53,649 nt of DNA from a virus (taxonomy: Duplodnaviria > Caudoviricetes): IMG/VR virus record IMGVR_UViG_3300038678_000209, positions 1 to 53,649 of that record; one strand, given 5' to 3'. Below the pieces are notes generated by a model. The model made no database searches, was not told the origin of the DNA, and saw nothing but the letters and a program-made list of their open reading frames with translations. Below are positions 24,202 through 53,649 of the stretch, piece by piece (positions within the stretch are counted from its first letter, which is position 1; the number at the start of each line of letters is the position of its first letter). The position numbers were made by a program, and so were the translations under genes.

Positions 24202-24390
24202 ATGAAACCGCAATCTACCATTGGTGGGGACCGGTTAACGGACCCGCGATCGTGCGCAAACTGCGGTCGCCGCCCGCGCCTGCCCACTCTCCAGCACTGT
24301 GGACGCTGCTACGAATACCTAAAGCCCCTTGTACGCGCGTGGGCACGCAAGCAGAACCCCATCCCTGGAGAGGACATACCAGAATGTTGA
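24202..24390 (+). CDS. Small Zn-finger protein
   Basis: GGAG RBS, CANC...CGRC, contains element copy 4. Confidence 0.55.
   Translation: MKPQSTIGGDRLTDPRSCANCGRRPRLPTLQHCGRCYEYLKPLVRAWARKQNPIPGEDIPEC
24217..24237 (+). repeat. Dispersed 21-bp element, copy 4
   Basis: ACCATTGGTGGGGACCGGTTA, 19/21. Near the 5' end of a small early gene, encoding TIGGDRL. Confidence 0.9.
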
Positions 24391-24905: not shown

Positions 24906-24919
24906 CGAAAGGAAAGACG

Positions 24920-25090
24920 ATGGCTGTATTGACAGATGAAGGCATGATGCGCGCGGCGTGCGTCATGCGTGAAGCTGCCGATCGAATGGAACGATCGATG
25001 ATGCGGCTGGACCAAATAGACAGGCAGCTCGAACGATTTGAACTGGCCACTGAGCGACTTATCCAGGTTGTGTCGTCAAACGAAGGATGA
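24920..25090 (+). CDS. Small coiled-coil protein (below the ORF-track cutoff)
   Basis: AAGGA RBS. MAVLTDEGMMRAACVMREAADRMER... Confidence 0.5.
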   Translation: MAVLTDEGMMRAACVMREAADRMERSMMRLDQIDRQLERFELATERLIQVVSSNEG

Positions 25091-25126
25091 GAAATTGACC
25101 AGGGCAGCGCCCTAGGAGTTAAAACG

Positions 25127-25387
25127 ATGGATCAGACATTGCCAGACGAGTGTCTCGCGAGAATTCCCGGTACAAGCGAAGTTATTGTGATCCGGCGTGG
25201 GGAATCCGGGTACCACGAAACCGATTGGGGCGAGCAAACAGGCGAGTGGATCGACCAAGAGAACAAGCGACGTGGCGTAGTCCCCGCCCAGTGTAAGGCC
25301 ATGATTATCGGGTCGATATTTGGCTGGGATGTGCCCGGGGCATTCGCGACTTCGGACATTGCCCAAGGTCTCGGCTTGACAACATGA
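25127..25387 (+). CDS. Hypothetical protein of a type common in phages and mobile elements
   Basis: AGGAG RBS. Motif IRRGESGY...N..RGV.PAQ..AM..GSIFGWDVPGA. Confidence 0.7.
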   Translation: MDQTLPDECLARIPGTSEVIVIRRGESGYHETDWGEQTGEWIDQENKRRGVVPAQCKAMIIGSIFGWDVPGAFATSDIAQGLGLTT

Positions 25388-25421
25388 ACATAACTTTCGT
25401 GCTCGCGTTGCAGCAGGAAAG

Positions 25422-26057: not shown

Positions 26058-26357
26058 TCAACTTCCTTTCGTTTCGTTTTTACCCGTTGAGTGCTCGCGA
26101 TCACGCGCCCGCTCCACTCCCAACAGGATCCCTAGCCTTATCACTTCGCCCGTTAGCGCGACCAGCTCGCCGCGCATGGCGTCAATCGACTTCTCCTGCC
26201 GCGCTTGCGCTGTCGCCAACGTCTCCACCCGATCTCGTACCATCCGTTCCACTTCCGCGCGCGTGACCAACGAGCGCGCCAGAGTGAACCACGTGCCCGC
26301 GCTACCAATCACGCCCGCCAAGATCGCAGGTATCAGTTGTGCCAGCGAAATTTCCAT
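26058..26357 (-). CDS. Single-TM plus coiled-coil protein (holin-like)
   Basis: N-terminal hydrophobic helix LIPAILAGVIGSAGTWFTL followed by a heptad-like region. Confidence 0.55.
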   Translation of the reverse strand: MEISLAQLIPAILAGVIGSAGTWFTLARSLVTRAEVERMVRDRVETLATAQARQEKSIDAMRGELVALTGEVIRLGILLGVERARDREHSTGKNETKGS

Positions 26358-26369
26358 TCTCGCTCTATC

Positions 26370-26537
26370 CAGGTCCCCGTGATTACTTGGCTCACGGGGT
26401 CAGAGGCCAAGTCCCAAGCCATAAGGCTGGGACCCACTCTCGCGTGTGTCAAAAGTGGGCGGGGGTCCAGGATTGCGTGCTGCACTCAACCGGTCCCCAC
26501 CAATGGCGCAGTCCTGCGTTCCTGGAGCCTGCCCGTC
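26370..26537 (-). ncRNA. Candidate structured leader RNA with a predicted pseudoknot
   Basis: At least four stems plus a 7-nt loop-to-flank complementarity (see findings). Confidence 0.45.
26487..26507 (-). repeat. Dispersed 21-bp element, copy 5
   Basis: 21/21 as reverse complement. Lies in the structured leader downstream of the leftward promoter. Confidence 0.95.
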
Positions 26538-26543
26538 CGGTCT

Positions 26544-26572
26544 ATTATAGGCCGCAATTTTGTCCAGGTCAA
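26544..26572 (-). promoter_or_regulatory. Leftward sigma70-type promoter
   Basis: TTGACC-N17-TATAAT. Confidence 0.75.
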
Positions 26573-26577
26573 CCCTC

Positions 26578-26606
26578 TTGACATGGCCCTTCGAGGGCGC
26601 TATCGT
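26578..26606 (+). promoter_or_regulatory. Rightward sigma70-type promoter for the replication operon
   Basis: TTGACA-N17-TATCGT, back-to-back with the leftward promoter. Confidence 0.65.
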
Positions 26607-34226: not shown

Positions 34227-35284
34227 TCTCTGACCTTTCCAAGATGACGGAAGTGCGGGAGGTTCCGCTGCGGTCCACGTTCATGTCGGACTCTGAGCGC
34301 TGCCCCCGCTACGCCTTGCTGCGCCACCGCGCCGGGCTGGTCCCGCGTGGTCACACGTCCGACGCGCGCTTCCGCGGGGACATCATGCACAAGATCGTTG
34401 CCGAGGTCCTCCGTGGCAAGACGCAGGAGCAAGCAGAGAGTGCTGCCCATACTCGCCTGACCGAAACATCACAGAGCATCGTCGATTCGCTCACAGACTC
34501 CGGCTACACGCCCGCGGGCAAGACCCCCGAGGAAGCGATCAAAAGCCTAGAGACCGAGACCAAGGTCGCCATTGCCATGTCCCGCGCCTACTGTAAGTTC
34601 TTCGGCATCCGCGCTGGCTCAGCCAACGTTCTTGTAGATCACGACGGCAAAATCGTCCACAACTCGCTACCTGTTTATGTAACTTGTATAGAACGCTTCG
34701 TCGGACATCACTTGTCTGAATGTAGTGAAGCGGGGGCTCTAGACGCGGTCTTGATAGACGAACCCAAGCGGAACCTGTATGTACTCGACCATAAAACCAG
34801 CGGACGAGACGGGGTACAGTATATACGGACCCTCCCGCTTGCTGCCCAGACGTTGTTATATCCGCGCCTAGCTGCCACCTTGTGCGCAGAGACAGACTTA
34901 CAGATTGCCGGAATCATCTACAACGTAATCCGCACGCCGACCATCCGTTGCTGCAAAACGGACGACAACGACCTTGACAAGTACGCTGCGCGCGTAGAGC
35001 AATGGTACGAAGACAACCTTGACACTACTATGGCACAAACAATCATTTGTCCCTCGCCGGAGTTGAAGATACTCTCGGTACAGCGGCACGAACGCGCTGC
35101 GGGGTACTGCACAGCGCCCCCACTGCTGGAGAACTTCCCGGCTTGTGGAGGAGCTGCTTGCCATGCCTACAACAGCTTATGTGCCTACATAGGGTTATGT
35201 ACTTTGGACACTAGTCTCTGGCCAGAACAATTGGCGCGCTTCGATAAGGACTTCCGCGATGACGAGCCTACAGTGGGCAACTAG
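34223..35284 (+). CDS. PD-(D/E)XK (RecB/Cas4-like) exonuclease
   Basis: N-terminal CPRY, RG..MH, GALDAV, VLDHKT, QTLLY, C-terminal Cys cluster. Confidence 0.82.
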   Translation: MISDLSKMTEVREVPLRSTFMSDSERCPRYALLRHRAGLVPRGHTSDARFRGDIMHKIVAEVLRGKTQEQAESAAHTRLTETSQSIVDSLTDSGYTPAGKTPEEAIKSLETETKVAIAMSRAYCKFFGIRAGSANVLVDHDGKIVHNSLPVYVTCIERFVGHHLSECSEAGALDAVLIDEPKRNLYVLDHKTSGRDGVQYIRTLPLAAQTLLYPRLAATLCAETDLQIAGIIYNVIRTPTIRCCKTDDNDLDKYAARVEQWYEDNLDTTMAQTIICPSPELKILSVQRHERAAGYCTAPPLLENFPACGGAACHAYNSLCAYIGLCTLDTSLWPEQLARFDKDFRDDEPTVGN

Positions 35285-35798
35285 TAAGCCTATACCAACT
35301 TTGCCGGGATACCGTGCTACAAGTGACGGCACCGTGTGGTCTAGTCGATGTTGCGGCGTTGGACCTGGGAATTGGCGTGCAGCCTTGTGCCCTGAAGAGT
35401 GGAAACAAATCTGCGGCAGCATCAACAAGGGATACCTACGCGCTGAGTTTCAATTGAACGGTCAGCCAACGCGCCGTCATCTGCACCAAGTGATCTGCGA
35501 AGCATTCCACGGACTGCGACCTGGTCTGAATCCTTTTTGGCAGGCAGCGCATAAAAACGGCGACCATTTCGATAACCGCCCCGTAAATCTGTATTGGGCC
35601 ACTGCCAAAGAGAACATGGCAGATCAGTACCGTCATGGCACCCGTGTTTCCAAGTTGACTGAAGAACATGTGCGTGAAATCTTACAATCGACGGATGGAC
35701 CTACCAAATTGGCTGTGCGGTTTGGCGTATCCGTTCCTACCGTTTGCAACATCCGAGCAGGACGCAAATGGAAACGTTTGAAAGGAATCCAACAATGA
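35259..35798 (+). CDS. NUMOD4-like/HNH homing endonuclease
   Basis: PGYRATSDGTVWS, HLHQVICEAFHG, HKNGD..DNR..NLYWAT.KEN, C-terminal HTH. Confidence 0.88.
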   Translation: MTSLQWATSKPIPTLPGYRATSDGTVWSSRCCGVGPGNWRAALCPEEWKQICGSINKGYLRAEFQLNGQPTRRHLHQVICEAFHGLRPGLNPFWQAAHKNGDHFDNRPVNLYWATAKENMADQYRHGTRVSKLTEEHVREILQSTDGPTKLAVRFGVSVPTVCNIRAGRKWKRLKGIQQ

Positions 35799-36757
35799 CG
35801 ACGACCCAAAGCGTTACGAACGTAATGACCAAGCGCGCGGTGAAGTTGCCCGCTGCGCTTACCGGCAAGATGAGGGTGTGCGCGCCGTTTGAGGCACCGG
35901 ACCTGGACTCGTTGTTCCTCGTGATCCAGGGGCGCCCTGGCTGCGGCAAGTCCTCATTGGTCGCATCCAACCCGCGCTGCCTCTTCTTCGATCTGGAGAA
36001 GAACGCAGGTACAGTAATCGACCCTGCCGCCGAGCGCGTCCAGGTGCGGCCCACATCGACTACCGCAGCCAAGGATATTCGCGCCGGTGTGGATGGCTTC
36101 TTGTCCGCTTACCGCACTGACACTGCGCTTCGCGGGGCCATTTCCACAATCGCGTTCGACTCATACGATCGCCTTGTGGAGATTTTCCTCCGAGACCTGT
36201 GCCGCGAACACAACCTGGAAGACGCCGGCGAGTACAAGACCGGCCACGGCAAAGGCTACTTCAAGGTCCGCGATGAGCTATTTGATATGTTCGAGCGCAT
36301 CCTGCAAGCCGGGTTGGGTGTCGTGCTTACGGCCCACTTGGGGCCACAAGACATTCGTATCCCCGGCAAGAGCGAACCAGAAACACACATCACGCTTTCA
36401 GTGTCTAAGACATTCCGCAACACACTCGTGCGCACCCGGCATATGATGTTTCGTATAGAGTGCCAGCCCGTTATGGTTACCAAGACGACTGCCGCTGGCG
36501 TCAAGATCAAGTTGCCGTCCAACGATCCGTCAGCATGTGAGTACGTGCTTATTACTAACACGTCCACCCATGCCAACGACTTCGACTCGCCCAAGTCGTC
36601 AGTTCCAATTGATTCCAAGTTAGTCATCCCAGCAGCGGGTTGCTGGCAGGCGCTTCGGGATGCCTACACGGGCGCCGTAGAAAAACGAAGAAACCAGAGC
36701 CGTGCCCTTGACACCACAGCTCCCAAAGGCAATAATCAAACAGGAGCGCGCGAGTAG
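35795..36757 (+). CDS. AAA_24/Sak4-like ATPase (single-strand annealing)
   Basis: GRPGCGKS, FDLE, TIAFDS, VVLTAH. Lies between the exonuclease and SSB genes. Confidence 0.8.
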   Translation: MTTTQSVTNVMTKRAVKLPAALTGKMRVCAPFEAPDLDSLFLVIQGRPGCGKSSLVASNPRCLFFDLEKNAGTVIDPAAERVQVRPTSTTAAKDIRAGVDGFLSAYRTDTALRGAISTIAFDSYDRLVEIFLRDLCREHNLEDAGEYKTGHGKGYFKVRDELFDMFERILQAGLGVVLTAHLGPQDIRIPGKSEPETHITLSVSKTFRNTLVRTRHMMFRIECQPVMVTKTTAAGVKIKLPSNDPSACEYVLITNTSTHANDFDSPKSSVPIDSKLVIPAAGCWQALRDAYTGAVEKRRNQSRALDTTAPKGNNQTGARE

Positions 36758-36799
36758 CCGCTCCGTCCGTCAGTCAGTTACAGCAAGAGGAGAGTTTCA

Positions 36800-37297
36800 A
36801 TGTCGGAAGAGCAAGGATTCATGGACGTTTTGGCTGGGTTCATTCCCGTAGCCAGAGACACCGAAGTTGGGGACGGTGGTTACTTCATCCCCAAGGGCGA
36901 GAAGCATCTGTCTCTCAACACCGCCGAGTTCGAGCCGGGCACGAACGACTACGGCCCGTTCGTCAAGGCCACTCTCACATGGGGCATCTGCGACCCCGGT
37001 GAGGACCAGGACCGCGAGTTCTCGACGGTCTACTTCGTGAACACAATGAAGCCGGATAAAGGTACCGGCGTTGCTAAGCTGTCCTTTGGCGGTCAAGACC
37101 TGCTGCGCCTCGCCGCTGTATTTGCAGGTGAGCCGATTGCAGACAACAACCCTGTCAACGCCGCAGCGGTCATCCAGGGCTCCATTGGCGCCGTTATCAA
37201 AGCCAAGTGCTCCGCGCGCAAGAACCCAAAGACGGGCGACGAGTATCCACGCGTCCGCCCGCTCTCCCTGGAAGCTATCCCGGCAACCACTCAGTAA
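36800..37297 (+). CDS. Putative single-stranded DNA-binding protein (OB-fold)
   Basis: Position after the Sak4-like ATPase. Pattern IPKGE...YPRV. GAGGAG RBS. Confidence 0.55.
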   Translation: MSEEQGFMDVLAGFIPVARDTEVGDGGYFIPKGEKHLSLNTAEFEPGTNDYGPFVKATLTWGICDPGEDQDREFSTVYFVNTMKPDKGTGVAKLSFGGQDLLRLAAVFAGEPIADNNPVNAAAVIQGSIGAVIKAKCSARKNPKTGDEYPRVRPLSLEAIPATTQ

Positions 37298-37520
37298 GGC
37301 GGGAAGTACCGGGCGTGGCAGCTCGGAGAGACGAGCCGTTCGGCGCCAGCTAACGGTGGGGGCTGACAGGCGAGTTCAAGGCTCGCCCGCCGAAGTGGAG
37401 ACTGAATGGGGCGACACCTGCCCGAATGACAAATACGCATGGGCCATTGGTGGGGACCGGTTGGGGTCATGCGTTCCAGTCGTCCAAAGTGGCGTGACCG
37501 GGGAGAGAGTTCCCCCTTTC
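37298..37520 (+). ncRNA. Candidate structured ncRNA containing an anticodon-less tRNA-like domain
   Basis: Nearly fully base-pairable 220-nt intergenic region with a T-arm GGCGAG-TTCAAGG-CTCGCC (see findings). Confidence 0.55.
37443..37463 (+). repeat. Dispersed 21-bp element, copy 6
   Basis: 21/21. Lies in the structured intergenic region after the SSB-like gene. Confidence 0.95.
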
Positions 37521-37539
37521 TACTAAAGGAAAACTACCA

Positions 37540-37758
37540 GTGAAGTTCACAGTGAATAATTCTCCGCAGACCGACGTAACCTTCCGCGCGGAAATTGATG
37601 AAGACGGCGATCTAATGCTGTACGCCAACGACTGCAAGCTACTCTTCATTACACACAAGGGAGGCCACTTAGCTCGGATGAGCGTGCCGAACGACCGGCG
37701 CGCGGCGTTGGCAGGGCTCTCATTCGATGAAGAAGACCACATTGAACTATCTGTATGA
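37540..37758 (+). CDS. Small hypothetical protein
   Basis: AAGGA RBS, GTG start. Confidence 0.65.
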   Translation: MKFTVNNSPQTDVTFRAEIDEDGDLMLYANDCKLLFITHKGGHLARMSVPNDRRAALAGLSFDEEDHIELSV

Positions 37759-37919
37759 GCAGAACGCACAAAGGACAAAAAGGCGCCGGGTACGAATACT
37801 GGCAAACGCGAATCTCCAAGTGGTTGCGCTCGCCGGGTTCGTGGACCAAGCGCACGACTAACCGCATCCTGCGCCGCACGCGCAAACAGAAAGACAAGAG
37901 TCAATGCCACCAACCGTAG
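37755..37919 (+). CDS. 54-aa basic protein (below the ORF-track cutoff)
   Basis: ATGA overlap. MSRTHKGQKGAGYEYW...WTKRTTNRILRR. Confidence 0.6.
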   Translation: MSRTHKGQKGAGYEYWQTRISKWLRSPGSWTKRTTNRILRRTRKQKDKSQCHQP

Positions 37920-38401
37920 TCCTTCATGGGTTCACCGTGGACCCCCGTCGCGATTGTGTAACGTGCCGGGAATGCGGCGCTTCTTTCGCTGCGATTGGGT
38001 TGCGCACTCAGGCGTTGCGTGTAGCGCGGTTGATGGGGCGCCCTTCGATCAACGTGCATCACTGCGCCGAACCACCGGCACCAGCAGTCCACATCGCTTG
38101 CGTGGCGCAACTCGTGTCTCTGGATCAACCTGCGCACGAGCCCAAGCATCTGCCTGGCGAGCCGGGGTTTGAACACGAGGTTGAGTGCGAACCGGCTGTG
38201 TGCCGATGGTGCAAGGACAAGCGCGAGATAACCATCAACTTCAAGACCAGGCCGTGCGATTGCGTGAAGCAGGAGAACACCGGTTGCGTGGGACAGGAGG
38301 ACATCGGCAGCGGGTGGGAAGTGCTCCTCGACGCCGCGCAGACGCAGGAGAAAATCGGTAGGGGGTGGAAAGTCAAGCATGAGTACCGCGGGCTTTGGTA
38401 A
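37904..38401 (+). CDS. Cys-rich hypothetical protein
   Basis: CREC and CRWC...PCDC motifs. Confidence 0.5.
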   Translation: MPPTVVLHGFTVDPRRDCVTCRECGASFAAIGLRTQALRVARLMGRPSINVHHCAEPPAPAVHIACVAQLVSLDQPAHEPKHLPGEPGFEHEVECEPAVCRWCKDKREITINFKTRPCDCVKQENTGCVGQEDIGSGWEVLLDAAQTQEKIGRGWKVKHEYRGLW

Positions 38402-38404
38402 CGA

Positions 38405-38425
38405 CAACCGGTCCCCACCAATGGC
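38405..38425 (-). repeat. Dispersed 21-bp element, copy 7
   Basis: 21/21 as reverse complement. Intergenic, 3 nt after the stop at 38401. Confidence 0.95.
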
Positions 38426-38452
38426 AGAATTTGTATTTAACGGAGAAAACTA

Positions 38453-38674
38453 ATGAAGATTGTGGACACAGTTGAAGCTCCTAAAATGTGTACGGTGTGT
38501 GATATTGAGGACGGGGGAACGTTCGAGTGGGATGGAAGCTACTACATCCGTCCGGGGTACGGCGTGCGACGTACAGGAGACATCGGCGGGGTGGGTCTAG
38601 CGACTGGCGACTTTGTTTCTAATTCTGTTACGTTGATGGTGCGCCGTGTGACAATGGAAGCGCGCGTGTTGTGA
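38453..38674 (+). CDS. Small beta-barrel-like hypothetical protein
   Basis: GGAG RBS. Weak resemblance to 26650-26886. Confidence 0.65.
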   Translation: MKIVDTVEAPKMCTVCDIEDGGTFEWDGSYYIRPGYGVRRTGDIGGVGLATGDFVSNSVTLMVRRVTMEARVL

Positions 38675-39168
38675 GGCAAACGCAGGTACAACTAGACTTG
38701 CACACGCACTGGCGGGCGCCGGGGCAGGCGAGCGGGGTCAAGGTGCGGTTGGCTGCGGCCAAGATGCCGATGGCTGTGAAGATTGCCATGCGCAGTTTGC
38801 CCGCGCAAACACGGATTGCGTGGGGTGGGCCGTATTCGCAAGAGCCGCCGGCCATGCGTGTGGTGTGGGGGTGGCCACTAGCGGATGACTGGCACAAGAT
38901 CGGCGTGTACTCGGGCTTGGCCGACAGCGACCCACGCACGCGAATGCGTTGGACCGTCTCCAAGCGCGCGCTGCGGTTGCAGATGGGACACGAAACACTT
39001 CCCTGTAGCAAATGGAATGGCGTGTTGTCCTGCGATCCCGACGAGAAAACCCCAATGCGCATAGTTCTACATGCGCGCCCGCAATTGTACGTACTCCGCA
39101 CGCCCCCGCGGGAGCGCCCCGTCGCCCCGAAACTTGGGACCCCCTTCCCAGAGATTGTGCTGCCATGA
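38671..39168 (+). CDS. Hypothetical protein upstream of the helicase-like gene
   Basis: GTGA and ATGA overlaps with both neighbours. Confidence 0.55.
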   Translation: MRQTQVQLDLHTHWRAPGQASGVKVRLAAAKMPMAVKIAMRSLPAQTRIAWGGPYSQEPPAMRVVWGWPLADDWHKIGVYSGLADSDPRTRMRWTVSKRALRLQMGHETLPCSKWNGVLSCDPDEKTPMRIVLHARPQLYVLRTPPRERPVAPKLGTPFPEIVLP

Positions 39169-39362
39169 GTGGTTGTATTGGTAGGCACAGACCCCGCTCT
39201 CCCGTCGAGGAGAACGCAGAACGCCAACAACCGGAAAACTGGGTTGTCTGTAGCCATTGCAATTGCCGCATGATTGGCTGCGGTGGTGTACCTTGGACGC
39301 ATACGTGCGGGACTTGTGGGAAGCCTGTGTGCGATGACTGCGAGCGGCAATGCAACGGTTAG
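39165..39362 (+). CDS. Small Zn-ribbon protein
   Basis: CSHC...CGTCGKPVCDDC. Confidence 0.5.
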   Translation: MSGCIGRHRPRSPVEENAERQQPENWVVCSHCNCRMIGCGGVPWTHTCGTCGKPVCDDCERQCNG

Positions 39363-40519
39363 ACGAGCTGTACCAAGAAGCGTTTGGGTGGGGGCCTGCG
39401 CAACTGGCGTGTGTGCATCTGGCGCTGGGGTGCTATCTGGCGCCGCGGTGGCCGATGCACCAGAGCCCCGCGTGGGCCGTTATGGTTGGTCCGCAATCGT
39501 GTGGCAAGAGCACGATACTGAGCATGTTTGACGGCATCCCATACAGCGTGTGCGTGGACCATCTAACACGCAATGCGCTTACGTCGTGCTACTCGGACGA
39601 AGATGACCCGGAGGCGGACCACTCACTGTTCCACAAGCTGTCGGTGAACACGCATCCGGTAGGAGAGAAAGTGTGGATTGTGCAAGAGCTGTCGTCTATA
39701 CTCGCGATGGAGCCTGTGGTTCTGGAGAAGCACTTTGCCGATCTACGCGCGGCGCACGTGGGTAAGCACGTATCACATGGTGGGATGAGTGGTACACGCG
39801 TCCGCAACATCGGGTCGTTTGGTATGCTGATCGGGACTACGGAGGCGTTCGAGCCGATACGCGCCAAGATGACTACCTTTGGGGACCGCTTCCTGGCGAT
39901 CCGCATGGCCCGGCACGCGGACGCATTCGAGGACCTGCGCGCTGAGTCTGATCGCGCTTGGGCTTGCGACGCGAGCAAGCAGGCTCGGATGAAGCTCCTA
40001 ATCCGGGAGGAGACGCACAAGATCATCAATCGCGGCATCGCCAACTTGTCAAGTCCGGTAGCCGGGAACGACCCGCCTGCAATTTCTATTCCGCCTGCGC
40101 TAGCGGATCGGTTGTCGGCGTGGACCACGATCCACAGCACATTCGCGACGGCGCCGCTGCATAACGGCGTACTAGCAACAGCGGTGGGCAAGCCGTACCG
40201 TATAGTGGAGCAAGTGCGGTCGTGGGGAGATACCCACGCGCTGCTGGATGAACGGACTGAATGGAACGAGTCCGAAATATCTGTGGCCCGGCGCGTGTTT
40301 CAGGATTCCATGCCGCGAGGCCATTGGGATTTGTTATCGGCGCTCGCGCAGCCCAACGGTGCGCCTACCACGAACATGAACCTGATTCGGCAGTGGGCTT
40401 ATTTGGGTGCAGTGGAAACCACAGATGGTTCGGACATAGAATGGCGTAGGGACCAGTCGTACCGTCTTACGGAGAAGTATCGCCAAATGGCGGAAAGGAC
40501 AAGGTATTTCGATGAATAA
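39350..40519 (+). CDS. AAA+ ATPase, putative replicative helicase (MCM/SF3-like)
   Basis: Walker A VGPQSCGKST, Walker B-like WIVQEL, arginine-finger-like GDRFL. Confidence 0.6.
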   Translation: MQRLDELYQEAFGWGPAQLACVHLALGCYLAPRWPMHQSPAWAVMVGPQSCGKSTILSMFDGIPYSVCVDHLTRNALTSCYSDEDDPEADHSLFHKLSVNTHPVGEKVWIVQELSSILAMEPVVLEKHFADLRAAHVGKHVSHGGMSGTRVRNIGSFGMLIGTTEAFEPIRAKMTTFGDRFLAIRMARHADAFEDLRAESDRAWACDASKQARMKLLIREETHKIINRGIANLSSPVAGNDPPAISIPPALADRLSAWTTIHSTFATAPLHNGVLATAVGKPYRIVEQVRSWGDTHALLDERTEWNESEISVARRVFQDSMPRGHWDLLSALAQPNGAPTTNMNLIRQWAYLGAVETTDGSDIEWRRDQSYRLTEKYRQMAERTRYFDE

Positions 40520-41448: not shown

Positions 41449-41722
41449 TCTAATCCAATGTGACCTATGCGGGGAGGTCATTCCAAAGCCCGCCGTCGTC
41501 AGGTTCTCAGCAGTTTTACGGTGGTCCAATATATCTCCAAATGGAACAGCAATCCCGGAAAAGGACGTGCCCGTTACTTTGGGGGACCTGTGTTTGAGTT
41601 GCCTTATACTCCTCAAGAGTGGGTTGCACTTTCAGGTGGTAAAATGGGTGGAAGAACACACTAAAGCAGCGGTCGGAAAGTTGCCGTACCGAGTTGTTGA
41701 CCAACCACCTACGGAAAGATAG
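41435..41722 (+). CDS. Small Zn-binding protein, last gene of the plus arm
   Basis: GGAGGAG RBS before the GTG at 41435. CDLC...DLCLSC. Confidence 0.55.
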   Translation: MARHNLIQCDLCGEVIPKPAVVRFSAVLRWSNISPNGTAIPEKDVPVTLGDLCLSCLILLKSGLHFQVVKWVEEHTKAAVGKLPYRVVDQPPTER

Positions 41723-44700
41723 TCGGGACGCGGGTGCGCTGGCGTCCTATGCTGTAAATGTCAACTTCAGACATAGGATCGAGTTCGTTGGTGTAGGTGG
41801 GCAGCTCAGCCGCGACTGGCTTGTACAGGCCACTGCGAACGGCGCGGCCGACTGGCCCTTGGAACGCGGCTGCTTCGTAGAACGGGCGCACGTCGCGCGG
41901 TAGGGCGGATAACTGCTTCTCGATACGGGTCATCTTGCGGCGCCGCTGCATCTGCTTCAACTGGTCCGTTGTGAGCGCGATCGGGTGGCCAAACCGACGC
42001 TCATGCTCGGCCTCGATGTTGGACGCTTTGGTAGCATCGTTGGCGAACAGAGCGTCCAAGTAGAGCCGGCGCGTTTCCTTGATCGCGTTCGAGTCCAGCC
42101 GCAACCGGTTTGCCAGTTCAGCTTCCTGGTCAATTGCGCCGCCCTTGATTCCCAGCGAGTGACGGACAAGTTCCCACGGCTTGTAGTACCCGACCAGGCT
42201 GCCCTTCCCGGTATACACGGGAATGCGGCCGGTGTGCGGGTCTCGGCCTGCGTAATTGGCGTGCTTGCGGTTGAGCCACCGAGCGGCCGGCTTGCCCACG
42301 CCCTCATTGATTCCTGGCACCAACCCCAGAGCGCGAGCGGCTGCCACGCCGCCAGGTACCAGCAACGGCATCTGCCGCGTGAACTGGTCCCAGTCTCCGG
42401 ACCCCGCCGCAGATAGAAACCCCCCCACTACGGTCGCGGCTGGGGGCACGATAGGAAGCGGCGCCAAAATGCTTCCGCGGTCATCGACGTTTGTAAAAGA
42501 CGGCAGCGCACCTCCAATCAGGGCATCCTTCATGCTCACGCCGAACGTCTGGCCGACTTCCATAGTCGCCCACGAGAACATGATCTGGCGAGAGATTTGC
42601 GAGAAGTCCCGATCTTCAATCGCGCGCCGGAATCCCTCCAGCGTAAACTCAGTGAATTTCGTGGGGAACATGGCCAATTGCCGAATGACCGGCTGCCCAA
42701 ACGCCCCAGCAGGAAGGAACGCCATCGGGGTATCAGTCAATCCTGGCACGAACTGGGTCCGCACAGCCACTTGGTGTGCGTGCTTGATCGCTTCCGCCCC
42801 GCGCATGCCACCTGCTTTAGCGTGTGTCAGGCCAGCGTAAAACCCCGTCATACGCACGTTGGTTTCCGACAGCTTGAACATTGACATGGCTGCACGCTTG
42901 GCTTTCTCTACCGTACTTACACCGATAGGCGCCGTCTTTTGCAACCGGTAAGCAGATTCCATAGCGCGTCCAAGCACCTCGTCCGTGAGTGGGCTACCGT
43001 GCAATCCAGATTCTACAAACTCAGGGAACGCGCGCTTGATTGCGTCTGTGTGTCCAAGTTTTTGCGCTAGCCGCGCCTCGAAATACCGCGGCATCCGCTT
43101 CAGCACTTCCAATTGACCCGCAAGTGCGTTCCCCCCGCCTACCAGCGTTGAAGTTGTAAGAACTGTCTGGAACGTGTTCTTGAACGCAGCAGACGGGTTG
43201 AGCCCTAGCGTGCTCAGGTAGAAGTAGCTAGCAACCGAGTGGGAGAACCCACGCAGGCTGAAGGCGCCCATGCTGCTACTATACATGTCCCGCATGTGGT
43301 TGGCAAAGTCGTCGCCCACTGCCGCCCGGACTCGCGGTGATTCCATTAGGCCGATGACTTGCCCCCACCGCTGGTCCCATAACTGTGCATTGAGAGCCTG
43401 ACGGGGTGTCGGCCTACCCAGCGCAGACGGGATGACGGTGTTCTCCAGCATACGCGCGCGCCAGCCGGACCGTGCGTCTACCTTACCAAGCAGCTTTGCG
43501 CGCTGTAACTCTCCGAGAATCTTTGGCCCGTTCCCGCGGATCGACCACGCATACGTATTCCCGATTGAGTGATAGTAGTTCTGGAGGACTGGTTCCAGGC
43601 GCAGTGAATACTGCTTGGGCATGTGCTCTGCGATGCCAGTCACGAACAGGTCCCGCTCGCCGTCCGCCACAAGGTTTTTGCCCTGCGCGGTAATCTCATC
43701 CAGCGTCTTACGGCGGAACGTTCGGAGCGTGCGGTCGGACAGTCCTGCTTTTCCAAATCCCTTGAGCAGCTTGTCCTTTACGCCGTTCTGCAATCGGGTC
43801 AGGGCCGCAGGGTCCACCAAGTCCCCGAGGAGCCCGAGTTCCTGGAGCGCCGGCATCATAGCGCCCTCGCGGCGGTAAAACTCTCGACCCAAAAACGTAA
43901 CGGTTTGCAGTTGCGCCTTGCGGGAAAACTCTTGCCCATTTGCTGTAGCGGTGATCGCATCGTGTAGCCGTTTGGCGTCGGCCTGCGTTCGGATCGTCCG
44001 GTGCGGCATGTAGTCCGGGACGCCTTTCCACTTGCCCTGCTTGAGCCACGTTTGCATGGCCTTCATGTCGGACACGTCGTAGCCCAGCCCCTCCAAGCGC
44101 TTCGCTGTGTCCCGCAGTCCAGTGATAAACTCCGGCCGGTTGAACACATGATCGCGTGTATGGTCTAACGCCACCCGCACATCTGCGCTCAGTTGGCGCA
44201 GGGCAGGGGTCATGGCTTCTTCAAGGCGCGGCACCAGCGGCCCAACATCCTTCCACCCGTGTGGTGCTTTCAGGTGCAGCTTTTCCCCGTGCAGGAACGC
44301 CATCACTTGCTCACGCGCATTAGGCATTCGCCCTGCAGCGCGTGTGTACTTATCAAATGCAGGTGCGAGCATCCCGTCCACGTATGTGCTATTGATCTCG
44401 TTTTTGGCAAGAACAATGTCGTCTAGAAGGTCAGGCACCGGCGTCCCGCGAAACGCCCCACGTGCCCCCGCAAAACCGCGCAACACGGGTATACGCGCCA
44501 ACATGCCGTCAATTTGGCTCTTGACTTTGAACAACGCTTTGGCTGACGGGATCGGAGAAACGAATGTGAGTGCGATGGACATCATGACCGCGGGGTTGGT
44601 CAGGGTCTCCATGATGCGGCCCTGTAACGAGTCGCGGCGGATTCCCCACTTGCGCAGGAGTTGATCCCGTTCCCCAATGGTCAGGGATTCGGGGGAGAGC

Positions 44701-44804
44701 ATAGACCGCCAGCCGGCATCTAGGTCCCCCATTGAAATGGCCTGGAACGCTTGCCCCGGCCTGTCGAGAATCCCGATTGGCGCTATGCCTGGTCCGTCCG
44801 GCAC
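41709..44804 (-). CDS. Large internal virion/DNA ejection-like protein
   Basis: 1031 aa, helical and polyvalent-like (LGLNPSAAFKN.FQ), last gene of the virion arm. Confidence 0.55.
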   Translation of the reverse strand: MPDGPGIAPIGILDRPGQAFQAISMGDLDAGWRSMLSPESLTIGERDQLLRKWGIRRDSLQGRIMETLTNPAVMMSIALTFVSPIPSAKALFKVKSQIDGMLARIPVLRGFAGARGAFRGTPVPDLLDDIVLAKNEINSTYVDGMLAPAFDKYTRAAGRMPNAREQVMAFLHGEKLHLKAPHGWKDVGPLVPRLEEAMTPALRQLSADVRVALDHTRDHVFNRPEFITGLRDTAKRLEGLGYDVSDMKAMQTWLKQGKWKGVPDYMPHRTIRTQADAKRLHDAITATANGQEFSRKAQLQTVTFLGREFYRREGAMMPALQELGLLGDLVDPAALTRLQNGVKDKLLKGFGKAGLSDRTLRTFRRKTLDEITAQGKNLVADGERDLFVTGIAEHMPKQYSLRLEPVLQNYYHSIGNTYAWSIRGNGPKILGELQRAKLLGKVDARSGWRARMLENTVIPSALGRPTPRQALNAQLWDQRWGQVIGLMESPRVRAAVGDDFANHMRDMYSSSMGAFSLRGFSHSVASYFYLSTLGLNPSAAFKNTFQTVLTTSTLVGGGNALAGQLEVLKRMPRYFEARLAQKLGHTDAIKRAFPEFVESGLHGSPLTDEVLGRAMESAYRLQKTAPIGVSTVEKAKRAAMSMFKLSETNVRMTGFYAGLTHAKAGGMRGAEAIKHAHQVAVRTQFVPGLTDTPMAFLPAGAFGQPVIRQLAMFPTKFTEFTLEGFRRAIEDRDFSQISRQIMFSWATMEVGQTFGVSMKDALIGGALPSFTNVDDRGSILAPLPIVPPAATVVGGFLSAAGSGDWDQFTRQMPLLVPGGVAAARALGLVPGINEGVGKPAARWLNRKHANYAGRDPHTGRIPVYTGKGSLVGYYKPWELVRHSLGIKGGAIDQEAELANRLRLDSNAIKETRRLYLDALFANDATKASNIEAEHERRFGHPIALTTDQLKQMQRRRKMTRIEKQLSALPRDVRPFYEAAAFQGPVGRAVRSGLYKPVAAELPTYTNELDPMSEVDIYSIGRQRTRVPTIFP

Positions 44805-44807
44805 AAG

Positions 44808-46082
44808 TTAGACTCCTCCCGCCGCCTCGCGTAGAATCGCGTCAAATTGCTTCATCACGTCGTCTGTTTGCCGCGGCTGTGGCGCTACCGGCAGTCTCGC
44901 GCTGCCCAATCGGATGCGGCCCGGCGTCTGCGCCCGCTGGCCACCTTGCTGCGCCCGCAACTGCTCAATCTCTGGGTTGGGTGCCGTGATCGTACTCAGT
45001 ACGTCGCGGGTCAGGTCCATCTCTTGCGTAACCGCGTTGAATCGTCCGATCTTGGCCTGCCGCTCTCGCTCCTTCATGGCCGCAAGAAACTGCCCCGCGC
45101 TGATAGCGCCACCCTCCGGCGTTGGGACCCTGTGGCCCCCACCAAGCTCCGGCGGCACCTCTCCGGTGATCCGCATTGTAGCTTCAAATTCTTTCCGCCT
45201 GCGCGCCCCTTTCGCCGCCGCACCAATTTGCCACACCGCCAGACCCGCACCGATTACCGGGATTACTTTTCCTTTTAGTGCGCGACCTAAGAACCCTGCA
45301 ATTCCTTTTCGCCCAGCGGCAGCGCCGGCACCCGCCGCGGCCTCACCACCTGCTGCGGCTACTGGAGCACCTGCGCCAGGCCTACGCGGAGCAGCAGGCA
45401 CAATCGGCCCACCACGTCCCGCAGGTACAATCGCTGTAGTTGGCGCTGCGCGGCCGGCAAACGACACCGGTTCTGCCAGTCCCGGAGGCGGCGGCAGCGC
45501 GGGGAACCGCATTCCAATCGGGAGCTTGCGCGGGGAGAGTTGTGCTGCCATCAATACAGTCTGCTTGATACCCGCGTCTCGGCTTACTCGGCCCAGCAGC
45601 GCCCCCGCGGTTACGGTCGCTAGCGGTCCAGCCGTCGCCATTACACGACTCGACGGCATCTTTCGCAGGGACTCCAACGCCTCGGGCGGCACACCAGCCT
45701 CCTCCGCAGCGTCCAGCGCAGCCTCAACCACCTGGCGGGCGTCTTGCTTGCTCATTTTTGGCACGAGCATTGCGTAGCCAACTTGCAGGTCGTTCACGAA
45801 CTCGCGCTGCGCATCTGCGTTCCCGATCATGTCCCGCAGCGGCTTGGGGAGATCGCTGGTCTTTCCCGACTTTCCTACCGTTGTAATCAGGCGTTCGGTC
45901 AGGTATTTCTTCGCTGCGCTCGGTGTGCTCTGCGCGCGAAGGCTCTCCCGCAACCGGCTCCGAATTGCAGCAAAGCGCTCCCTACCCGGTGCTTTCAACA
46001 GAACATCGCCCCAGCCGGACGCGTGTTCCAGCAGGGCTTCCATGTCAATCTCACCAGTCTCAGTTCGGTAGTGGTCTGGCAT
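44808..46082 (-). CDS. Putative internal virion/ejection protein
   Basis: A/G/P-rich with a TM-like segment VIPVIGAGLAVWQIG. Confidence 0.5.
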   Translation of the reverse strand: MPDHYRTETGEIDMEALLEHASGWGDVLLKAPGRERFAAIRSRLRESLRAQSTPSAAKKYLTERLITTVGKSGKTSDLPKPLRDMIGNADAQREFVNDLQVGYAMLVPKMSKQDARQVVEAALDAAEEAGVPPEALESLRKMPSSRVMATAGPLATVTAGALLGRVSRDAGIKQTVLMAAQLSPRKLPIGMRFPALPPPPGLAEPVSFAGRAAPTTAIVPAGRGGPIVPAAPRRPGAGAPVAAAGGEAAAGAGAAAGRKGIAGFLGRALKGKVIPVIGAGLAVWQIGAAAKGARRRKEFEATMRITGEVPPELGGGHRVPTPEGGAISAGQFLAAMKERERQAKIGRFNAVTQEMDLTRDVLSTITAPNPEIEQLRAQQGGQRAQTPGRIRLGSARLPVAPQPRQTDDVMKQFDAILREAAGGV

Positions 46083-46248
46083 CGTTAAAGTTCCCAGGTT
46101 GTTCCATGATGAATGCTGTTGTTTCTTTTCCTATGACCGTTTTGATCCTAGCTAGAAACGCCGCCGACTCTGACTCCGTTTTTACATACTTAGTCGGCAA
46201 CCAAACAACAAATTTCGCCTTTGAACACAGTTTCTCATTGCCGTTCAT
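46060..46248 (-). CDS. Small hypothetical protein
   Basis: GGAGG RBS and ATGA overlap. Fills the gap between neighbours. Confidence 0.5.
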   Translation of the reverse strand: MNGNEKLCSKAKFVVWLPTKYVKTESESAAFLARIKTVIGKETTAFIMEQPGNFNDARPLPN

Positions 46249-46721
46249 CGTTCTTCCTCCCTAGACGTTAATGGCGGCAGAGCCGCCGTGCGCTTGCTAG
46301 GCGGTGTATACGGTCCAGCACGAGTCGGATCAAACCTTGCAGCTAGGTCTTCCGGGTCCATGCCGACCTGCGCGGCTACCTGCCGGATCAACGGGACATC
46401 GCGTGTGGCGAACCCACCGCCACGTATGCCCTTCTCCACGGGACTGACAAAGCCCCTCTCTAGCCCTGTCTTCGTACTCAAAAGCCGCTGGTTCCTACGA
46501 GCACGCGCCATGCTAAACTCAGTTTCCACGTCCTCGCGGGCTGCCATTCGCCTCGCAGCAGCCTGCACTTGTTTCTTCTGCGCAGCGCGTATGGTCTCTG
46601 CCAGATTGACATTGGGGTCATTTGCGCCCTGGTACATTTCGTAGACGAATGAAGCTAACGCGGTAGCGTACAAGCCACCTTGCAAAAGCTTCCATCCAGC
46701 GAGTAACAGCGGTGCGGCCAT
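46245..46721 (-). CDS. Putative ejection protein with N-terminal hydrophobic helix
   Basis: GGAG RBS. MAAPLLLAGW... Confidence 0.55.
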   Translation of the reverse strand: MAAPLLLAGWKLLQGGLYATALASFVYEMYQGANDPNVNLAETIRAAQKKQVQAAARRMAAREDVETEFSMARARRNQRLLSTKTGLERGFVSPVEKGIRGGGFATRDVPLIRQVAAQVGMDPEDLAARFDPTRAGPYTPPSKRTAALPPLTSREEER

Positions 46722-46735
46722 CTTATTCTCCCTAC

Positions 46736-49096
46736 CTACTGCGGAAACGGACTCGGCTGCGCTTGTGGACGCTGCGGCTGCTGCGGTTGTTGTGGCTGCT
46801 GTGGACCACCGCCCCCAACTTGCGCCGGACTTAGTTGCGCTGCACCGCCGGGTTGCGCCTGTACAGGCGATTGCGCTGGTTGTACCGGTTGCTGCTCCGG
46901 AACGTTAGCAGGCCCAACCTTGGGCGGCTGCGGTGCCGCCTGCACTGCTTGAGAACGCGCCCGCGACTCCAGCACGCGATCCGTAAAGCTCTGAATCGGC
47001 TGCTTCCGTTCCTTGCGCGCCGGCAGAGCAGTTGTAGTCCCGATAGGCGACTCGTACAATTGTGACCGTTCGTTGAACTCCGGTATTGCAGTAAACGGAT
47101 TCGTAATCCCATGTTTGGCCGCGTCTTGGTGGTGCGCGCGTACCGTATTGAACTCGGAGTCTCGTTCCGGATCGGTATGCAATGGATCGTCGCCGCTCCC
47201 TGCGTTGTAGTATTCGCGCAGCCCTCGTCGCGATCCTGGCCGGTTGTGCAACTCTGCGATGCTCTGCAATACCCCCCGTGGAGCCCGAAACAACTTGTTC
47301 TCCCGTGTGCGCACCGCTTGTGCTGTTTCCGCCGAGATTTTGCCTTCGTCCACCAACCCCTCAAGTTCATGCGGCTCCAACACACTCAACACCGCAGTCG
47401 CGTGCCCATCTTTAAGCACTGCCATAGCGTGGTTGTTTTCTTGCCATGTCCGCATGATCGTGTTATTCTTGATCGGAAGCAGCATCCGCTCTCGGTGCCA
47501 CCTGTTCCACTTGCTAATTACCTGGCTCACCGCTGCCTCGGCCAGCTCAGGCGGAATCGCCATTTGCTCTTCCGCAGTCGGCGCAGTATCCAGTACAGTA
47601 AGTGGCTGACGCTGGGACACGCGGTGCCTAGCTCGGGTTATGTCCGTTGCAGTCTCCGGGTCAACTCCCGATTCGATCAACTGCGCACGTCTAAGTGACC
47701 CCAACCACGCTCCTACATTCCCGCGAAACGTCGGGTCCGTCGTTGCGCCGGTCAGGATTTCCTGCATCTGCGTTGCGAGCGCAGACATCGGAATCGTATC
47801 GTACATATCCTCAGCCATGCGTACTTGGAAGTCCGCATCCGACTCGCCGTCCTTACGGATACCCGGAGCCCAACGGTTCGGGTCATCGTCAGAAAGTCCC
47901 AAGCGAAGCGCACGATCGGTAGCTTCTGAAGAAGCACGAGTGCCCTCCAACACAGTCGAATAAATCTGCCGTACAACCTGTTCAGGCGTCGCGCCTGTCT
48001 GCTCCCACTTTCTTGGATTTGGCACCAGCGCATTTGCAACTGCATCCGGCAGCGCCGTCGCAACTGCGTCTCCGTATTCCTTGTACATCCGCTCAAGTGG
48101 CTCGCCCATTTCCTCCGCTTCCAGTACATCTGCCGCCACACGCAAATGGTACTGCCGCCGCGCCTCTTCCGACTGCATCACAGCCAGTACGAGGTCGTCC
48201 TGCTTTGCCTTTGTGATCGCCTTGAAAGACACCGGATTGACCATGACGAACTTCGGGTCGTCCATACTCATAGCCCACACGCCACCCTTGGGGTACCCAT
48301 TGTACAGTTCCCACTCGCGGGCCTCCTCCGGCGTCAGCATAGGCAAGTCCAGCTTCAGCGCTTCCAGCATCGCTGCCGGAATTGGCATCATAGGCTGCTC
48401 AAACGCTCCAGCTGGCCCCGTAGTCGTTGCCTCCCCGCGTATAAGCGCTTGGTTCGCCTGCGCCACCATCGCGTGTAGCTTGTCTGCGTAGGGGCTGTCA
48501 AGCATGTCTTCCCGTACCACCTGCGCCATGCGAGCCAAGTCAAGCATTTGCTGCCGAGTTTCCAGTCCCTTTGGCCCAAGCCGATCCCACGCATTCGCGG
48601 CGTCCATATCGTAGACCCAGTCAACAGCAGACCCTACCGACTCGGCAATCGTCGCGGCCCCCCGCTCCTGCTCGTCCAACAACCGCCCTTTTTTCGCTTC
48701 ATTCTCCTGAATGATACTTGCCAGTTCCGCCCCTTCACGCTGTACCTTGCTCGTAAGCTCACGCTGGTAGTCTATCGTCTCCAACTGGAACCTACGTCCT
48801 TCCTCAGTCAGAGCCTCTTGACGTTCCTCCTGCCGTCGAGTTTCCACTCGCTGCTCGGCCTGATTTACTGCGCGCTGTGCCGCGTCCGCCACCTGTGACA
48901 CCGCCGCTTGCGTCTGCTCAGCCTGCTGCGCCTGTGCTTGCGTAGCCCCGCGCACAAACTGGTTCATGGATTTGCCCATCGCGTCTATAAACGCCTGCAC
49001 GGACTGTACCAAGTTTGCACCACCAGCGCCGCTACCGCCACGGGACAGTGCCGCCTGCACCAGTTGTTGTCTATCGAATCGCGGTTGCGGTGGCAT
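46736..49096 (-). CDS. Putative internal virion protein (coiled-coil, Q/P-rich tail)
   Basis: Likely start is the ATG at 49096 (MPPQPRF), directly after the upstream stop. Confidence 0.55.
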   Translation of the reverse strand: MPPQPRFDRQQLVQAALSRGGSGAGGANLVQSVQAFIDAMGKSMNQFVRGATQAQAQQAEQTQAAVSQVADAAQRAVNQAEQRVETRRQEERQEALTEEGRRFQLETIDYQRELTSKVQREGAELASIIQENEAKKGRLLDEQERGAATIAESVGSAVDWVYDMDAANAWDRLGPKGLETRQQMLDLARMAQVVREDMLDSPYADKLHAMVAQANQALIRGEATTTGPAGAFEQPMMPIPAAMLEALKLDLPMLTPEEAREWELYNGYPKGGVWAMSMDDPKFVMVNPVSFKAITKAKQDDLVLAVMQSEEARRQYHLRVAADVLEAEEMGEPLERMYKEYGDAVATALPDAVANALVPNPRKWEQTGATPEQVVRQIYSTVLEGTRASSEATDRALRLGLSDDDPNRWAPGIRKDGESDADFQVRMAEDMYDTIPMSALATQMQEILTGATTDPTFRGNVGAWLGSLRRAQLIESGVDPETATDITRARHRVSQRQPLTVLDTAPTAEEQMAIPPELAEAAVSQVISKWNRWHRERMLLPIKNNTIMRTWQENNHAMAVLKDGHATAVLSVLEPHELEGLVDEGKISAETAQAVRTRENKLFRAPRGVLQSIAELHNRPGSRRGLREYYNAGSGDDPLHTDPERDSEFNTVRAHHQDAAKHGITNPFTAIPEFNERSQLYESPIGTTTALPARKERKQPIQSFTDRVLESRARSQAVQAAPQPPKVGPANVPEQQPVQPAQSPVQAQPGGAAQLSPAQVGGGGPQQPQQPQQPQRPQAQPSPFPQ

Positions 49097-49097
49097 C

Positions 49098-50564: not shown

Positions 50565-50581
50565 GCTACTCTGTCCCACTG

Positions 50582-50610
50582 ATTATAGGCCGGTAGACCC
50601 GCGTTTTCAA
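50582..50610 (-). promoter_or_regulatory. Sigma70-type promoter for the ejection-gene operon
   Basis: TTGAAA-N17-TATAAT filling the short intergenic gap. Confidence 0.7.
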
Positions 50611-50612
50611 CC

Positions 50613-53599: not shown

Positions 53600-53649
53600 G
53601 AATCAACCGGTCCCCACCAATGGCCGCTGTTATGGCAGTATCGGCCACA
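53523..53649. repeat. 127-bp exact terminal overlap (copy 2)
   Basis: Identical to 1-127. Confidence 0.95.

Follow-up and report, generated by a model that had tools for sequence, protein, structure and literature searches.

Among the RNAs with which phages are known to regulate themselves, the C4 RNAs of P1 and P7 and the CI RNA of P4 are processed small RNAs that carry complementary sequences in their loops and have more than one target site on the mRNA of the phage itself, the ribosome-binding region included, as described in two sources (PMC12197685, PMC3632133); the P1 C4 and P4 CI RNAs are also RNase P substrates, according to a passage of PMC5499578. RNA-level control of a phage's own genes is likewise described, in passages of PMC4933390 and PMC12197685, for the early antisense RNAs of PAK_P3, STnc6030 of BTP1, OOP of lambda and sar of P22, and rnTrpL is presented in part of PMC6614838 as a trans-acting small RNA (sRNA) derived from an attenuator or leader. 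Few small RNAs are known from non-prophage phages, as far as the passages of PMC4933390 go. Here we analyze a complete viral record of 53,649 nucleotides (nt), referred to as the window (G000 in comparisons), and in it a 20-21-nt element, CCATTGGTGGGGACCGGTTG, that recurs in eight copies. Two of these lie at the tips of predicted RNA hairpins. One is in a stretch singled out by a first-pass annotation (37395-37490, plus strand), which is the core of a putative conserved non-coding RNA that we named RNA-A (~37395-37522, plus strand), and the other is in a minus-strand hairpin that we named sRNA-B (26455-26538).

We propose, with a probability of about 0.5, that loop-presented antisense RNAs act on this phage's own mRNAs. 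RNA-A would follow a degenerate tRNA-like element and end in a weak terminator-like hairpin, with the tip of its helix P3 displaying the 20-nt element, and sRNA-B, transcribed from a near-consensus sigma-70 promoter, would display the same element at its hairpin tip before a U-tract. The displayed sequence could pair over 16-22 perfect base pairs (bp) with complementary sites in the phage's own mRNAs, namely within codons 46-74 of genes for a 119-amino-acid (aa) protein, a 301-aa scaffold-like protein and a 488-aa protein, and in the 5' untranslated region (UTR) of a 73-aa gene. Such pairing would either block translation (directly at the ribosome-binding site in a distant relative, G003) or create a ~20-bp duplex that invites cleavage. 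The oldest pair would be RNA-A and the 119-aa gene; the lineage of the window and of a second relative, G001, would later have planted the element elsewhere and gained the second RNA. This proposal is built on sequence, folds, conservation, co-variation and promoter-like and terminator-like signals; we infer that the RNAs are transcribed, that processing occurs at the tRNA-like element, that the pairing takes place in vivo and which way the regulation would go.

The nearest known systems to RNA-A appear to be the C4 RNAs of P1 and P7 and the CI RNA of P4. A tRNA-like element lies directly before RNA-A in G001 and could serve as a processing signal of the kind known for these RNAs. Unlike C4, which has an Rfam family of that name, neither RNA-A nor the window as a whole gave a match to an Rfam covariance model, and whereas C4 and CI use two short loop seeds, a single seed of 16-22 nt (26 nt in G003) is displayed here by two RNAs, with the candidate targets in three virion-gene open reading frames (ORFs). 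The genome was scanned for tyrosine and serine recombinases (PF00589, PF00239) and encodes neither, and no integrase or resolvase was found in it. Because no integrase or recombinase is encoded, the circuit is probably not a temperate-phage immunity system. The cis-antisense RNAs listed above resemble the present case in that structural or regulatory genes of the same phage are concerned and the complementarity is perfect, but they are encoded opposite their targets, whereas the regulators here lie 1-25 kb away and a short module is planted in several genes. Like RNAs of the rnTrpL type, sRNA-B is a promoter-proximal hairpin with a U-tract upstream of a gene, and a terminated leader could act in trans; unlike them, it has no evident sensing ORF or ligand logic, and its function is a putative one. 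To our knowledge, the small RNAs known to control a phage's own late genes are of the cis-antisense or of the C4/CI type. A narrow literature search turned up no system of the kind proposed here; one may still be in print.

Copies of the element and their change in a distant relative

When the window was searched for the element with at most 3 mismatches, nine matches were found, compared with 0.00 expected in 100 shuffles. They represent eight distinct copies, as the matches at 81-101 and 53603-53623 both lie inside a 127-nt terminal duplication. The copies are located at 81 (-, identical with 53603, -), 9608 (+), 12897 (+), 24218 (+), 26486 (-), 37444 (+), 38404 (-) and 50377 (+). Relative to their own transcripts, four of them are in sense orientation (37444, 26486, 81 and 24218) and four are the complement. 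At all eight, identity to the homologues is 95-100% within the element, compared with 51-92% in the 60-nt flanks.

The relatives used in these comparisons were found in several ways. An exact 17-mer scan identified G001, a viral contig of 55.6 kb that carries eight copies of the element, ordered and oriented as in the window, with 79-86% identity around the RNA-A locus. G003, a distant complete relative, was found by a protein scan, with 43% identity in the protein encoded upstream of RNA-A. The 17-mer scan of metagenomes gave 77 loci, and when 133 loci were compared by blast (132 from the bacterial-genome and metagenome scans, plus L006), six relatives were obtained (L103, L105, L107, L114, L120 and L129), with 66-82% identity over longer aligned stretches. 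In 596 Gb of bacterial genomes, 55 single 17-mer hits were scattered over unrelated phyla, compared with about 69 expected by our own arithmetic. Pattern scans of viral contigs returned only G001, G003 and unrelated coding hits, and searches with the upstream 165-aa protein, as a single sequence or as an alignment, returned only G001 and G003. A blastn search of a phage collection with positions 36000-40000 gave no match.

The strongest argument for a base-pairing link is the joint change of seed and target in G003, which represents one independent lineage. Only two copies of the 13-nt core of the element are present in that genome, one at the tip of its RNA-A and one in its homologue of the 119-aa gene, antisense to that gene. 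The two are identical to each other over 26 nt, and their 3' half is unlike that of the window's element. Additionally, a 14-nt stretch of the G003 RNA-A, which extends outside the element, is complementary to a site in this 119-aa homologue that covers its GGAG and 5' UTR sequence, just downstream of that gene's CTATAAT promoter; a 14-nt complement was found in 2 of 20,000 dinucleotide shuffles of this transcript. The first-pass annotation had suggested that the element might guide an RNA to transcripts carrying its reverse complement, in a self-targeting circuit. The co-variation and the Shine-Dalgarno site in G003 support this idea for the 119-aa gene; the four sense copies were not addressed in it.

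The complement copies are the candidate targets. As that annotation had pointed out, the reverse complement of the element is present in the mRNAs of three minus-strand genes and at the plus-strand site 38404. In the 119-aa gene (12695-13054, minus strand), the copy at 12897-12917 (+) places the complement at mRNA codons 46-53 (NQPVPTNG), and it matches RNA-A over 22 nt, the longest match together with that of copy 81-101. In the 301-aa scaffold-like gene (8923-9828, minus strand), the copy at 9608-9628 (+) places it at codons 67-74 (PQPVPTNV), and in the 488/493-aa gene (49098-50564, minus strand) the copy at 50377-50397 (+) has its mRNA complement in the stretch encoding TQPVPTIG. The fourth copy, at 38404-38424 (-), has its complement on the plus-strand mRNA, from where it is 28 nt to the start codon of the 73-aa gene (ATG at 38453). 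The three coding copies share one frame, encode QPVPT(N/I) and lie about 140-200 nt after the start codon. Strong minus-strand promoters of their own precede the 119-aa gene (13127-13099) and the 488-aa gene (50610-50582). A plus-strand promoter-like site was sought upstream of the three coding copies and none was found, and for this reason these copies look like targets and not like RNA genes.

The possibility that QPVPTN is a peptide cleavage or targeting signal was also considered, and it was weakened by the G003 homologues of the 301-aa and 488-aa proteins. Because these homologues lack VPTN, the peptide appears not to be required in the two proteins, and the element would have been added to them in the lineage of the window and G001.

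The sense copies have varied surroundings. The copy at 37444-37464 (+), at the apex of P3, can fold as AUUGGU-GGGG-ACCGGU and is 100% identical in G001 and L129, with one U-to-C change in L105. The copy at 81-101 (-) belongs to a minus-strand late transcript and ends 3 nt before the ATG of a 152-aa gene; it shares with the RNA-A copy the downstream sequence TCATGCGTT, as had been noted before. The copy at 24218-24238 (+) covers codons 6-12 of a possible 62-aa ORF with a CxxC...CxxC pattern (24202-24390) and lies about 240 nt upstream of a 142-aa gene (24477); the differences of this ORF from G001 by codon position (10/12/17) give weak coding support. The remaining sense copy, at 26486-26506, forms the tip of sRNA-B.

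A second motif, YGCGWT (TGCGTT or CGCGAT), is found 6-8 nt 3' of the element at five of the eight copies (81, 9608, 24218, 37444 and 50377), and two further copies carry CACGCA in its place. The motif might extend imperfect pairing.

If the antisense reading is true, a probably lytic, uncultured phage would run a small regulon in which two structured RNAs display one 20-nt address that has been planted in a 5' UTR and, always in frame, in three virion genes. The comparison of G003 (one RNA and one two-site gene) with the window and G001 (two RNAs and at least four targets) would then show the growth of a regulon. It would also provide a handle for searches, namely the tip of an intergenic hairpin that recurs as its reverse complement inside ORFs.

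Folds and conservation of RNA-A and sRNA-B

The RNA-A core is flanked by a 165-aa gene (36800-37297) and a 72-aa gene (37540-37758), which leave a gap of 242 nt. Its minimum free energy (MFE) fold comprises a closing stem P1 (GGA-GACTG, 37397-37404, with CAGTC-G-TCC, 37477-37485), a hairpin P2 (GGGC(G)/(T)GCCC, 37409-37423) and a long hairpin P3 (37435-37474) with the element at its tip. P3 is formed by ACGCATG (37435-37441) and CATGCGT (37468-37474), and the apical pairing ATTGGT-GGGG-ACCGGT includes two G-U pairs. These helices had been named in the first-pass annotation and all of them are present; together they are both the RNAfold MFE structure and the centroid of 37395-37490. The fold has an energy of -38.9 kcal/mol (z -2.10), and 5 of 200 shuffles fold as well. 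It is kept in a 248-nt intergenic context (z -1.30, 20/200 shuffles), and in a 131-nt context it is kept in the centroid only (z -0.91, 39/200 shuffles). Energy alone thus puts the RNA-A fold barely beyond chance.

The conservation of the locus points more clearly to a structured RNA. Between the window and G001, a near-invariant island at 37389-37503 (+) holds 3 substitutions in about 115 nt, while the upstream intergenic DNA is unalignable and the neighbouring genes differ by 14-21%. Five homologues, which represent a few lineages, were aligned with the model structure as a guide, and 91.4% of the cells of this alignment are paired, compared with 84.8% in shuffles (0/500 as high) and 34-42% in slid controls. 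Six pairs change on both sides (2/500 shuffles), and the covariation score is 0.255, compared with 0.138 in shuffles (0/500). In P2, the base pair 16-30 reads GC, CG or GU and the GACACCU loop is invariant; in P3, the pairs 42-81, 46-77 and 47-76 change on both sides. Because the alignment is model-fitted and contains five sequences, we regard these compensatory changes as moderate support for the structure and not as proof. A covariance model built from the four close homologues with the structure of the first-pass annotation finds the G003 copy at full length (21.1 bits, E 2.6e-4 in 16 kb). With respect to the strand, sense pairs exceed antisense pairs through G-U pairs in 9 of 9 rows, which include all five RNA-A sequences.

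The closing stem is the less certain part. The strand GUCGUCC (37479-37485) can pair either with GGAGAC, forming P1 and closing the junction, or with G(A/G)AUGAC at 37424-37430 (+), forming an alternative helix, P1', that extends P3 into one long hairpin. The two are mutually exclusive. Paired cells amount to 89.2% for P1 and to 93.8% for P1', in which three one-sided changes are all pair-keeping, and P1' is the MFE choice in G001, L105 and L129. Of the three-way junction that had been described for this stretch, P2 and P3 are the firm parts, and the closing stem competes with an equally conserved alternative.

Downstream of the core, a weak terminator-like hairpin (37500-37515) is followed by CUUUCU (whole feature 37500-37522, +). 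It occupies the same place in G001, L129 and G003, with an AGAG-type loop, stem letters that differ among the window and these three, and a U-rich run after it; its energies are no better than those of shuffles. Upstream, the stretch 37298-37394 (+) forms a degenerate tRNA-like leader, in which a closing helix (GGCGG...CCGCC) and, at 37369-37387, a hairpin resembling a T-arm can be recognised. Its counterpart in G001 scores 30.0 bits with the Rfam tRNA model (RF00005; gathering score 29) and directly abuts RNA-A. The T-arm of this counterpart is canonical, while its anticodon arm carries an insert of 33 nt; ARAGORN makes no call on it. The leader of the window has neither an Rfam tRNA hit nor an ARAGORN call. 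ARAGORN called no tRNA or transfer-messenger RNA in the window, in L015 (G001) or in L016 (G002, unrelated to the window). At the gathering score, Rfam gave 0 hits in the whole window, and in 37200-37650, with E up to 10, only an unrelated thermometer was returned (12.4 bits). We infer that RNA-A is cut from a longer transcript at the tRNA-like element. Taken together, the conservation island, the compensatory changes in P2 and P3, the sense-strand G-U bias, the terminator-like hairpin and the tRNA-like element upstream in G001 agree with the earlier suggestion that the locus acts as RNA.

A small ORF from the ATG at 37469 was rejected as coding sequence, being out of frame in the window, fused to the next gene in G001 and lacking the ATG in L129. 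In G003, an extra small gene (L160, 3498-3718) lies between the 165-aa homologue and RNA-A, where the window and G001 have the tRNA-like element; we guessed from its sequence that it encodes a DNA-binding fold.

The second presenting hairpin, sRNA-B (26455-26538, minus strand), is of about 30 bp and starts about 6 nt after a promoter, TTGACC-17-TATAAT (26544-26572, minus strand), which matches the consensus at 11 of 12 positions and whose letters TTGAC and TATAAT are invariant in all four homologues. The U-tract UUUUGAC (26448-26454, minus strand) follows directly, and a 99-aa gene (26058-26357, minus strand) begins 98 nt after sRNA-B. The differences of this gene from G001 by codon position (7/3/25) argue that it is a real minus-strand gene inside a plus-strand block. 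The hairpin has z values of -3.39 in the window, -5.58 in G001, -5.33 in L107 and -2.99 in L120. One-sided changes are kept as G-U pairs on the minus strand, and G-U pairs favour that strand in three relatives. The RNA-A model aligns the upper part of sRNA-B to P3; the two share their apical architecture but not their stem sequences. sRNA-B may be a free small RNA or a terminated or attenuated leader of the 99-aa gene. It is absent from G003, where the homologous promoter drives a protein gene.

Next to the sRNA-B promoter and pointing away from it, a site TTGACA-17-TATCGT (26578-26606, plus strand) is directed towards a 78-aa gene and the DNA polymerase gene; this arrangement looks like a divergent control region.

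Alternative explanations of the element

Several observations weigh against the proposal that RNA-A and sRNA-B act as antisense RNAs. Of the four sense copies, simple antisense action in trans leaves two, at 81 and 24218, unexplained. In L105 the RNA-A seed carries the U-to-C change while the other element copy of that contig keeps the U; the U is also kept by copies on L103 and L107, which are from the same sample as L105 (a common origin is not established). The shared frame of the three coding copies, with a chance of 1 in 9, hints at a constraint at the level of the peptide or of the copy history. A duplex of 20 perfect bp is unusual for trans-acting bacterial sRNAs and fits a protein's DNA site equally well. 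As for expression, no sigma-70-like promoter for RNA-A was found in 37150-38550, and among the sequencing runs searched for the window sequence no RNA run matched, the two matching DNA runs being available as contigs only.

Further points of this kind concern the folds. The RNA-A energies are weak (z -0.6 to -2.2) in four of the five homologues, the MFE fold of the G003 sequence itself differs from the model structure, and P1 and P1', being equally conserved, cannot be distinguished. The pair counts for RNA-A lean towards the model because the alignment (A7) was fitted to it, and the sample is small, with five RNA-A and four sRNA-B homologues from a few lineages. For sRNA-B, 96.9% of the cells are paired, and the shuffle control, on four closely similar sequences, does not reach significance (175/500); in the window, its region also folds equally well on both strands (-42.4 vs -42.1).

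An alternative that we rate as rather unlikely is recognition of the element as double-stranded DNA by a protein of the phage or of its host (for instance a repressor or roadblock, a site-specific nickase, or a factor for replication or packaging), with the RNA folds around two of the copies being incidental. A protein reader would be indifferent to transcript sense, and all eight copies would be explained at once: near-identical 20-bp sites in both orientations, in coding and non-coding DNA, syntenic in G001 and arranged in pairs spread roughly evenly around a genome that also carries an HNH endonuclease gene (35259-35798). Such a reader would not account for the exact placement of two copies at hairpin tips, in conserved hairpins with stem sequences that vary between loci and between phages and with G-U pairs that favour one strand, nor for the 14-nt Shine-Dalgarno site of G003, which complements RNA-A and yet lacks the element core. 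In addition, no tyrosine or serine recombinase is encoded and the 17-mer is not enriched in bacterial genomes. The stoperators of mycobacteriophages of the L5 type are repressor DNA sites with one orientation relative to transcription. Like them, the element is an asymmetric site with many copies scattered through transcribed regions, ORFs included; unlike them, it occurs in four sense and four antisense copies, two of which are built into RNA hairpins. Stoperator-type repressor sites were rejected on this single-orientation definition.

Site-specific recombination was considered separately. Crossover sites of an invertible segment (Gin/Hin type) were rejected, as PF00239 is absent, all relatives are collinear and no inversion joint is seen in the contigs; integration was rejected as well, with no PF00589 in the genome. 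The comparison of the contigs of the two DNA runs with the window gave no usable ends and no inversion joint. One low-depth contig (2.1) joins ~38319, plus 35 letters, to 26487; it probably stems from a variant strain and was placed here through the identical element. Parts of 37626-38826 are uncovered.

A different protein-based explanation, which we consider doubtful, gives the hairpin tip the role of an RNA operator, bound by a translational repressor or an antitermination factor in four gene leaders, with the complement copies as by-products. The boxB/nut site of lambda is an antitermination RNA operator of this sort. The positions of the sense copies would suit such a role, since all four lie 3 to ~260 nt upstream of the 72-aa, 99-aa, 152-aa and 142-aa genes, terminator-like features directly follow two of them, and the apical fold AUUGGU-GGGG-ACCGGU is identical at both structured loci. 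What it leaves unexplained are the four complement copies, perfectly conserved at synonymous sites, and the case of G003, where the outer part of the apical stem (UU...UCC) is lost and the only partner of the RNA tip is the in-gene complement together with the site on that gene's ribosome-binding region.

Pairing in cis is improbable in our view. In this case sense and complement copies on one transcript would form duplexes of 16-21 bp closing loops of 1-3.3 kb and would mark polycistronic RNA for double-strand-specific cleavage, much as the flanks of 16S and 23S form duplexes that are cleaved double-strand-specifically in rRNA operons. Possible partners are 37444 with 38404, 53603 with 50377, and 26486 with the minus-strand reading of 24218. 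In each of these three pairs the sense copy precedes the complement on the same strand, at distances of 0.96, 2.3 and 3.2 kb, and G001 agrees in order and orientation. What lies between 37444 and 38404 is variable (960 nt vs 542 nt in G001), as would be expected of cassettes with processing sites at their borders. For the copies at 9608 and 12897, however, there is no nearby sense partner on their strand, read-through from 26486 to 24218 would have to cross convergent genes, and the two copies of G003 are ~27 kb apart and on opposite transcripts.

Finally, hairpin RNAs that guide the nicking, priming or marking of DNA at all eight copies through R-loops would account for both orientations, for the near-perfect 20-nt identity and for the co-variation of seed and sites in G003, but this is very improbable, as no candidate effector was recognised in PHROGs or Pfam (no recognisable Cas, TnpB or IS110-type protein), the guide lies inside a hairpin rather than at an RNA end, and the second G003 site, on the Shine-Dalgarno sequence, points to mRNA.

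Genome layout and neighbouring genes

The terminal repeat of the window is exactly 127 nt (1-127 and 53523-53649), and 127 nt is a common assembler k-mer length. For this reason the record is probably a circularly assembled genome, with the repeat being an assembly overlap rather than physical ends. Minus-strand genes occupy 41709-53599 and 108-20282, with the large terminase at 13152-15062 among them, and plus-strand genes occupy ~20413-41722, including those for a DNA polymerase, an exonuclease, an HNH endonuclease and a Sak4-like protein. Most window proteins have no PHROGs or Pfam family match. The names given by these databases are limited to the polymerase, exonuclease, HNH, Sak4-like and terminase proteins, and PHROGs, Pfam and Atlas gave no name for any target or neighbour protein. 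The HNH endonuclease gene (plus strand; PHROG 59, E 2e-30) reaches into the beginning of the Sak4-like gene and may be a mobile insertion.

A minus-strand cassette (26357-25500) is embedded in the plus-strand block. It consists of two genes, the 99-aa gene downstream of sRNA-B, whose product has a hydrophobic N-terminus, and a 184-aa gene. The 184-aa protein shows 31% identity in G001 and 55% in the distant G003, in which its gene is preceded by another gene than here. A contig of lower depth (10.9 vs ~240-310) from the probable source run skips 510 nt (24907-25418), which removes an 86-aa gene (25127-25387); this contig is a strain variant.

Within the 301-aa scaffold-like gene, a promoter-like TTGACT-17-(C)TATAAT is found at 9270-9316 (minus strand), with an in-frame ATG (…SYNMKQ…) directly after it. 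The site is conserved in G001 and G003 and could serve a shorter C-terminal scaffold protein or the expression of the downstream capsid genes. In total, six CTATAAT sites with a good -35 hexamer are present in the window, all of them on the minus strand (50588, 26550, 19246, 18187, 13105 and 9280). Three of the six head element-carrying transcripts, and G001 and G003 have seven and four such sites, respectively.

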